Under the pieces are notes generated by a model. It was not told the DNA's origin. It saw only the letters and a program-made list of their open reading frames with translations, and did no database searches. A stretch of 64,000 nucleotides of DNA from a virus (lineage: Duplodnaviria; Caudoviricetes): positions 26,342 to 90,341 of the IMG/VR virus record IMGVR_UViG_3300002026_000006; one strand, written 5' to 3'. Position numbers and translations under genes: made by a program. The stretch's first letter is position 1; every line of letters begins with the position of its first letter. This document shows, piece by piece, positions 12,870 to 13,200 of this stretch.

Positions 12870-13200
12870 TCGGTAGGTGGTTATCAATAGTGTGAACCTA
12901 GCGAACGAATTAGAGTAGGCGATAAATGGTTTATCGTGGGCGGCTTGACCTATTACCCATAACAGTCTTACAATTAACAAGCGGGGTGATAGTAGCCACC
13001 TCTAATCGTCTGCTACTATCAGTGTCCTTTTACATTTTAGAACATCATTTTTTGTGAGAAGTAAGTCACTCTTACTTCTCTTTCTGCAAGTTACCGACAC
13101 ACCAAGAATGAGGTCAGGATCACCTAGTATCAACTGCTAGGACAGCCCTTAAAGGATTGTAGTGAACAACCATGTTCACCCTCGTCTTTTTTTGATGAAG
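12870..13200. ncRNA. Candidate structured non-coding RNA (or structured DNA element), family not recognised
   Basis: No ORF; hairpins at 12920-12936, 12987-13021, 13056-13080, 13123-13141 and 13162-13179; long-range pair 12946-12951/13111-13116; loop-pairing 12905-12915 with 13000-13009. Confidence 0.5.

Follow-up and report, generated by a model that had tools for sequence, protein, structure and literature searches.

What does a phage carry in some 810 nt of DNA (12541-13350) in which no credible gene stands among the called ORFs? The stretch lies in what we call the window, the whole 64,000 nt of viral DNA analyzed here, which is part of a 90-kb IMG/VR record; the same locus is also found within a 107-kb JGI contig. 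The genes around it identify the genome as that of a T4-like phage whose closest cultured relatives are cyanomyoviruses, with a gp32 identity of only 40%. An earlier note on this DNA had singled out the block 12870-13200 as a hairpin-rich, pseudoknot-capable element and had taken it for a novel phage noncoding RNA or ribozyme. Large RNAs that conserve a complex fold are rare, and nearly every class that is understood has brought new biochemistry with it: ribozymes, riboswitches, RNA-guided nucleases, and RNA cages. We find it most likely that about 410 nt of this noncoding stretch are the gene for a structured RNA of an undescribed family.

Results

Homologues and Distribution

Homologous copies of the element are present in three other metagenomic T4-like phages, one of them complete (L011), one nearly complete (L002/L019), and one partial (L012). 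The contigs L002/L003, L011, and L012 were reached through protein homologues of gp32 and of the deaminase encoded to the right of the element (the gp32 of L002/L003 is 80% identical), and in each of them a homologous noncoding region lies upstream of the deaminase gene. The remainder of the L002 locus is found on L019, a contig of the same sample that shares a 22-nt overlap with the end of L002. Nucleotide identity of the element is 70-76% (L011, L002), and the flanking protein genes range from 60% to 79% (gp59, 62-73%). At such divergence neutral DNA would be unrecognizable, and the element is as conserved as the protein genes beside it.

The known range is small. The RNA is absent from five related loci (L005, L006, L013, L014, and L020/21), and a covariance model built on 147 positions of its core (R1) detected no diverged copy in L005, L006, L013, L014, L020, or L021. 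No copy was found by blastn among 50,697 GenBank phages. Scans with exact and degenerate motifs gave only two chance matches in IMG/VR, both inside a structural gene, and motif scans of the JGI metagenomes and of GTDB genomes gave four chance matches each and nothing else; searching IMG/VR at the protein level with gp33 or with the N-terminal domain of the HNH-like protein described below likewise found nothing. Within the 90-kb record the element is single-copy.

A Conserved, Covarying Fold

Checked against the sequence, every coordinate in the earlier note was correct, and most of the helices that it drew are borne out by the homologues. Both 10-bp stems are perfect and backed by compensatory changes: 12987-12996 (TGATAGTAGC) pairs with 13012-13021 (GCTACTATCA) around a 15-nt loop (12997-13011), and 13056-13065 (GAGAAGTAAG) pairs with 13071-13080 (CTTACTTCTC) around the loop TCACT. 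The proposed pseudoknot, in which CTCTAATCGT (13000-13009) in the 15-nt loop can pair with ACGAATTAGAG (12905-12915) around a single bulge, also covaries, A-U being replaced by U-A in L011 and by G-C in L002, and one C-G by U-G; two of its 10 pairs are changed on both sides, and three cells are unpaired. The shorter hairpins, at 13161-13180, 13123-13141, 12920-12936, and 12937-12959, are present. The long-range closing helix fared differently: its two strands (TGACCT, 12946-12951; AGGTCA, 13111-13116) exist in the window, but the helix is not conserved, one partner being deleted in L002, and we have rejected it. The block had also been called richer in GC than its flanks, which is true of the noncoding flanks (12800-13199 has 0.385-0.405; the left flank has 0.235-0.29 and the right flank 0.32-0.36), but its GC content is about level with that of the coding DNA of the genome. 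Finally, the conserved structure exceeds the block as first drawn and extends from about 12836 to about 13241 (Table 1).

Table 1. Features of the locus, with positions in the window
Feature	Positions	Strand	Evidence or remark
177-aa HNH endonuclease gene	12007-12540	minus	Pfam HNH, E=2.3e-8
Hairpin modules	12573-12754		25-bp repeat, outer arms, 13-bp hairpin
AT-rich tract, ~75 nt	12755-12830		GC 0.235 over 12600-12799; TAGAAT and TATAAT-like boxes conserved
Predicted structured RNA body, ~410 nt	12836-13241	minus	Identity 70-76%, covariation, no coding signal
Terminal hairpin Hn	12836-12872	minus	14 pairs, 1/14 changed on both sides; 95% of cells paired on minus
Pseudoknot 3' strand (CUCUAAUUCGU)	12905-12915	minus	Pairs with 13000-13009
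Hairpin Hm	12920-12936	minus	3/6 pairs changed on both sides; enclosed by pseudoknot
Hairpin Hl	12937-12959	minus	2/5 pairs changed on both sides; enclosed by pseudoknot
Nearly invariant 24-nt linker (CCCGCUUGUUAAUUGUAAGACUGU)	12962-12985	minus	Alignment
Hairpin Hk (first 10-bp stem)	12987-13021	minus	9/10 pairs changed on both sides
Hairpin Hj, 5 bp, variable loop	13023-13044	minus	3/5 pairs changed on both sides
Hairpin Hi (second 10-bp stem)	13056-13080	minus	5/10 pairs changed on both sides
Invariant 31-nt block	13120-13150	minus	Identical in all 3 full copies
Hairpin Hd (GGUGAACAUGGUUGUUCACU)	13161-13180	minus	2/8 pairs changed on both sides
Predicted sigma-70-type promoter	13249-13277	minus	TTGACA 13277-13272, 17-nt spacer, TGT TAGATT 13257-13249; 10/12 match plus TG
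Divergent TG-extended -10 promoter of the deaminase-gp33-gp59-gp32 operon	13315-13342	plus	TGnTAnAAT-like box conserved in 4 sequences
101-aa zinc deaminase, gp33, gp59, gp32	Right of element	plus	gp33, late-transcription co-activator; gp59, helicase loader; gp32, SSB

Applied to an alignment of the three full copies (window, L011, and L002/L019), RNAalifold gives some 105 pairs whichever strand is folded, and one in four of these shows compensatory changes. From this prediction we dropped a 3-bp GAG/CUC closing helix because it competes with the covarying pseudoknot, and we added the pseudoknot itself; the final structure has 110 pairs in 15 helices, over which 97% of the cells of the three-sequence alignment are base-paired. 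Pairs changed on both sides number 27, compared with 10.4±2.5 in column shuffles (0 of 500) and with only 3-5 in a control in which the partners were slid by 1-3 columns, counts that are descriptive and are not probabilities, the copies being related and the cells not independent. The loop of Hk provides the 5' strand of the pseudoknot (13000-13009). One pair of Hd is a different Watson-Crick pair in each of the three sequences, and the partial copy in L012 matches the L011 type. A putative CCUAG/CUAGG hairpin (13123-13127 with 13137-13141) falls inside the invariant 31-nt block, and the nearly invariant linker may, in the RNAalifold model, pair with the invariant segment CGGUAACUUGCAG at 13084-13096, both sides being invariant.

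Folding energy was compared with that of dinucleotide shuffles. For 12840-13200, z is -4.6 on the plus strand and -3.5 on the minus strand; for 12831-13241 the values are -4.0 and -4.4. Those of the homologues are only -1.2 to -2.7 and do not separate the strands, which we count against the explanation favored below.

Strand and Promoters

Read as minus-strand RNA, the covariation-supported helices contain G·U and A·C in a ratio of 26:1, a count biased toward the strand used for structure prediction; Hk has three G·U cells and Hn ten, all of which would be A·C mismatches on the plus strand. Reading the same helices on the plus strand exchanges the two counts and leaves 85% of the cells paired, down from 97%. 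The converse test, with a structure optimized for the plus strand, shows no such bias (8 G·U, 8 A·C), and the pairs predicted on both strands include four G·U on the minus strand and none on the plus. The consensus fold of the alignment comes to -101 kcal/mol on the minus strand versus -88 on the plus strand.

Upstream of the minus-strand reading, a TGn element with a TAnAnT box occupies the same alignment columns in four sequences (window, TGT-TAGATT; L011, TGA-TATAAT; L002, TGA-TAAAGT; L012, TGA-TACAAT), and the -35 box is retained only in the window and in L002. Transcription from this predicted promoter would begin near 13241. Taken together, the G·U/A·C asymmetry and the conserved extended -10 promoter indicate a minus-strand RNA that would start at about 13241 and reach 12836 at most, one that is probably made early and by the host polymerase. 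The lean of the earlier note toward the minus strand is thereby upheld, but not on the grounds of late promoters that it had offered: the late-promoter sequence TATAAATA precedes late genes in the window, and none lies upstream of the element. Two kinds of plus-strand features count against the minus-strand reading, namely conserved -10-like boxes at 12794-12818 and a weak terminator-like hairpin with a T run at 13162-13193.

Coding Capacity and Known RNA Families

The block was said to be free of ORFs, and its longest ORF indeed has no more than 57 aa. In none of the copies does an open frame exceed 59 codons; the gaps between copies measure 1, 2, 3, 4, 7, 10, and 11 nt; and the variable columns are spread 53/47/39 over the codon positions, without 3-base periodicity. 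On these three counts we reject a protein-coding or decayed gene.

Rfam 15 (4227 models, including tRNA-like, tmRNA, RNase P, 6S, riboswitch, small-ribozyme, GOLLD, ROOL, and HEARO models) yielded zero matches at the gathering score over the whole window, and at E<=10 the regions 12400-13500 and 12815-13250 returned only noise, the best score inside the element being 11.4 bits versus a cutoff of 63 bits. No known ribozyme core was matched in Rfam at either level. With default settings ARAGORN reported no tRNA or tmRNA, and its calls at a 70% threshold are spurious and unlike the conserved helices. The earlier failure to recognize a tRNA, a tmRNA, RNase P, or a group I core is confirmed by programs, and the proposal of a novel phage noncoding RNA gains from the lack of an Rfam match at the gathering score together with the covariation behind the stems. 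A group I intron is rejected, there being no group I match even at E<=10 and no interrupted gene: the element is flanked by the divergent promoter region and the complete 101-aa deaminase gene on one side and by a spacer and the complete HNH gene on the other. A search for antisense or guide targets gave none above chance in the window or in the phages that lack the cassette.

The Spacer and the HNH-Like Gene Downstream

Following the RNA on the minus strand come, in this order, the AT-rich tract, a 13-bp hairpin (12728-12754), a perfect 25-bp inverted repeat (12593-12617 with 12658-12682, enclosing a 40-nt loop) with outer complementary arms at 12573-12583 and 12715-12725 (GAGCGAAGTGA and its near-complement), and the HNH gene. 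In L011 (2372-2456) the repeat is of 24 bp and of different sequence, so that both arms have changed together in a compensated manner; in L019 (39-128) it keeps the sequence of the window. It could be a divergent promoter pair, an operator, or an RNase III-type hairpin in a minus-strand transcript. The spacer as a whole varies in length (300-550 nt) and in content: that of L019 (130-451, reverse strand) is about 250 nt longer than that of the window and holds repeated GCGAAG-type hairpin motifs. We found no canonical intrinsic terminator between the RNA and the HNH gene on the minus strand, and the spacer motif is not repeated elsewhere in the window.

The HNH-like gene has orthologues at the same position in L011 (1709-2260, minus strand) and L019 (452-1003), and RNA and gene occur together in all three lineages in which both can be seen. 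Absence of the gene is seen only in L005, where no HNH is found among the called genes and the 825-nt gap holds only short ORFs. The N-terminal 60-70 aa of the protein have no relatives among 1.84 billion representative proteins, and about 85% of the first 60 aa are conserved among the orthologues; a disordered linker rich in Lys and Arg follows. A search with the AlphaFold2 model of the protein matched HNH domains only; no RuvC or PLMP domain came up in the 177 aa, whether with Pfam or in the fold search. The window codes for a canonical HNH domain, but the L011 and L019 versions lack the catalytic histidines (VDHI to VYPI, CNHGK to CKQEK) while keeping the four zinc cysteines. The L011 and L019 genes are nevertheless intact and under moderate purifying selection (roughly 0.4 nonsynonymous to synonymous change), and they are 88% identical in DNA, compared with 62-74% in their surroundings, a pattern that suggests recent exchange of an apparently inactive endonuclease gene. 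Such divergence is typical of a mobile free-standing endonuclease gene (PMC2988022); it would also fit a gene that has acquired a role other than that of a nuclease.

Discussion

The explanation that we favor, and hold with moderate confidence, is that the locus encodes an undescribed family of minus-strand structured RNAs of about 410 nt, with a conserved host-polymerase promoter and a fold under selection, and that this RNA would work by binding protein. Host RNA polymerase would read the minus strand from the TG-extended -10 box at 13257-13249, divergently from the promoter of the deaminase-gp33-gp59-gp32 operon. The transcript would fold into at least eight helices, with an H-type pseudoknot joining the Hk loop to 12905-12915 and enclosing two hairpins and the nearly invariant 24-nt strand. 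Selection acts on this fold, and also on a number of long invariant stretches that are single-stranded or lie at junctions, and not on a reading frame. Our best guess is that the product is a stable early noncoding RNA. Among the candidate partners we favor the small HNH-like protein encoded downstream on the same strand, and we count against such a link both the separate divergence history of the gene and the 300-550-nt spacer between the two. Processing of a shared precursor at the 25-bp hairpin, whose length suffices for an RNase III substrate, may set the RNA free.

A bolder form of the idea is that RNA and HNH-like protein constitute an undescribed ribonucleoprotein, either a minimal RNA-scaffolded or RNA-directed nuclease or a regulator, in which the orphan N-terminal domain and the basic linker would hold the pseudoknotted RNA, or else that the RNA is a new ribozyme mobile together with an endonuclease gene; we consider this quite unlikely. 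One parallel is the HEARO (omega) RNA of IscB, likewise a structured RNA of a few hundred nucleotides upstream of an HNH-containing gene on the same strand. Here the Rfam HEARO model finds no match, 300-550 nt of spacer intervene, no guide-like complementarity was found to the window or to phages without the cassette, and two orthologues are without catalytic histidines. IscB proteins are about 400-500 aa and have a split RuvC domain, a bridge helix, and HNH and PLMP domains. We reject a partner of the IscB kind, since the 177-aa protein is too small and simple and has only the Pfam HNH domain.

Other known systems resemble the locus in part. Like the large "ornate" RNAs of phages and bacteria, GOLLD, ROOL, OLE, and raiA (Rfam; PMC12286853), the element is a long, multihelix, pseudoknotted noncoding RNA, here borne by a phage and recognized only through covariation. 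It differs from them in lacking any match in sequence or structure, in its size (about 410 nt, compared with 600-800), in not lying beside tRNA genes, and in being carried by only four metagenomic contigs. Group I introns with HNH or GIY-YIG genes in T4-type phages are also compact pseudoknotted RNAs of similar size beside a gene of the homing-endonuclease type, a likeness that ends with the missing group I match and the absence of an interrupted gene. Among the free-standing homing endonucleases of T4, segB lies in the cluster of tRNA and stable-RNA genes and segG between genes 32 and 59 (PMC2988022), and the divergence pattern seen here suggests a comparable recent transfer of an accessory endonuclease gene into an intergenic hot spot by the 33-59-32 cluster and an RNA gene; the likeness concerns the neighboring gene and not the RNA. 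The stable RNAs of T4 itself, tRNAs and two small RNAs of 120-140 nt, are unlike the 410-nt element.

Several other explanations deserve consideration. If transcription continued into 12540-12007, the fold could be a long cis-acting 5' leader that controls the timing, stability, or translation of the HNH-like gene. RNA structure and promoter choice are known to control endonuclease genes of T4 (PMC2988022), the two features keep the same strand and order in all three lineages, and no canonical intrinsic terminator separates them on the minus strand. We nonetheless think a leader unlikely, although less so than any of the other alternatives, for the variable spacer has TG-extended -10 boxes of its own in the arms of the inverted repeat, RNA and gene diverge differently, and a pseudoknotted leader of 410 nt with 31-nt invariant blocks would be disproportionate for a 177-aa accessory gene. 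The AT-rich tract invites a different idea, that the transcript forms a persistent RNA-DNA hybrid at 12830-12755 and primes replication, in the manner of ColE1 RNA II or the R-loop origins of T4. The layout, a promoter followed by about 400 nt of conserved fold and then a very AT-rich tract of about 75 nt, recalls that of RNA II (with no homology, and in a phage, not a plasmid); the locus adjoins the genes for the helicase loader and SSB; and in L005, which is without the element, this place holds three tandem 11-nt iterons. All of this is circumstantial, the AT-rich tract could equally be plain promoter DNA, no GC skew or other origin signal is visible, and the R-loop origins of T4 are not known to require an RNA fold; an origin primer seems to us very unlikely.

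Two further alternatives question the strand, or whether RNA is involved at all. A plus-strand RNA might be transcribed from a -10 box near 12813-12818 as far as the hairpin and T run at 13162-13193, and we judge this just as improbable as an origin primer. It would make sense of the conserved TAGAAT and TATAAT-like boxes upstream and of the terminator-like site at 13162-13179, which is followed by T7, and the plus-strand fold of the window taken by itself is slightly more stable. Against it, 26 cells of the covarying helices turn into A·C mismatches, most of Hn is lost in L011 and L002, the fold of the alignment is weaker by 13 kcal/mol, and the T run begins 7-8 nt past a stem that has only three G-C pairs. 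Least probable of all, and by our estimate a distant prospect, is an element that acts as DNA, either by forming a cruciform or single-strand structure or as a recombination or regulatory cassette like the PeSLs (promoter and stem-loop cassettes) that shuffle T4-type genomes and are documented in T4-type phages (PMC2839356, PMC4122927). The adjacent spacer, built from promoter-like and hairpin units that include long perfect inverted repeats, and the variability of the locus among relatives would suit such an element, but duplex extrusion would not be expected to give 26 G·U to 1 A·C, the pseudoknot and the long invariant unpaired blocks are not features of PeSLs, and the element is single-copy in its genome, with a spacer motif that does not recur in the window. 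PeSL cassettes proper, which combine an early promoter with a terminator-like stem-loop, measure tens of nucleotides, and are repeated many times in a T4-type genome (PMC2839356), we reject for an element of about 410 nt in single copy.

A protein-binding RNA, or a catalytic one, would give phage biology a new RNA family and possibly a new compact RNA-protein tool. Even as a leader or an origin primer, a conserved fold of 410 nt would be unusual for T4-type phages. The combination of a covariation-supported pseudoknot, invariant blocks of 24-31 nt, and a companion HNH-type protein whose specificity domain has no relatives gives the locus its interest; with so narrow a known distribution, the finding is limited in certainty as well as in reach.

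Additional Observations

The apical loop of the 25-bp hairpin, 12632-12639, reads GATTAGAG on the plus strand and CUCUAAUC in a minus-strand RNA. The latter repeats the 8-mer of the pseudoknot's 3' strand, is kept in L019 and not in L011, and could be an alternative partner for the Hk loop. Each arm of the 25-bp repeat carries TGTATAAT, an extended -10 box reading outward. In the longer spacer of L019 (130-451) and in L002 (1-60) there are several motifs of the GCGAAGC/GAGCGAAGCGA type, and the Logan contigs L002 and L003 both break exactly at a repeat of this type; GCGAAGC is the sequence of a very stable GAA mini-hairpin. Across the divergent region, in the promoter of the deaminase operon (13315-13353), the -10 box ends about 8 nt before the ATG and no Shine-Dalgarno sequence is present, so that the deaminase, as the first gene of the operon, would be nearly leaderless.

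The heptamer CTAAATA stands twice on the minus strand near the element, at 13288-13282, where it is invariant in four phages, and at 13231-13225. It is not enriched in the window (12 copies found, 18 expected), but five of the 12 copies are correctly oriented and immediately precede genes, among them a GIY-YIG gene, gp32, and a structural gene; copies occur at 13282-13288, 13225-13231, and 9472-9478 on the minus strand and at 14563-14569 and 47268-47274 on the plus strand. CTAAATA may be a variant late-promoter box used alongside the canonical TATAAATA.

At the locus of L005, whose gp32 is 76% identical, an unrelated ORF-free gap of 825 nt (L005:4980-5804) takes the place of the element; its three tandem 11-nt repeats are iteron-like (ACTTTACATAA on the plus strand). 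Beside it is an ORF of 211 aa with the motif ELDYYNEEL...FEFNGDQHY, which recalls endonucleases of the DUF559/Vsr type. The site has the look of a hot spot for accessory DNA; it may instead be an origin. A more distant relative has Pfam matches to intein-splicing domains in its RNA ligase gene (L014:2526-3212), which suggests an intein inside the RNA ligase of that phage.
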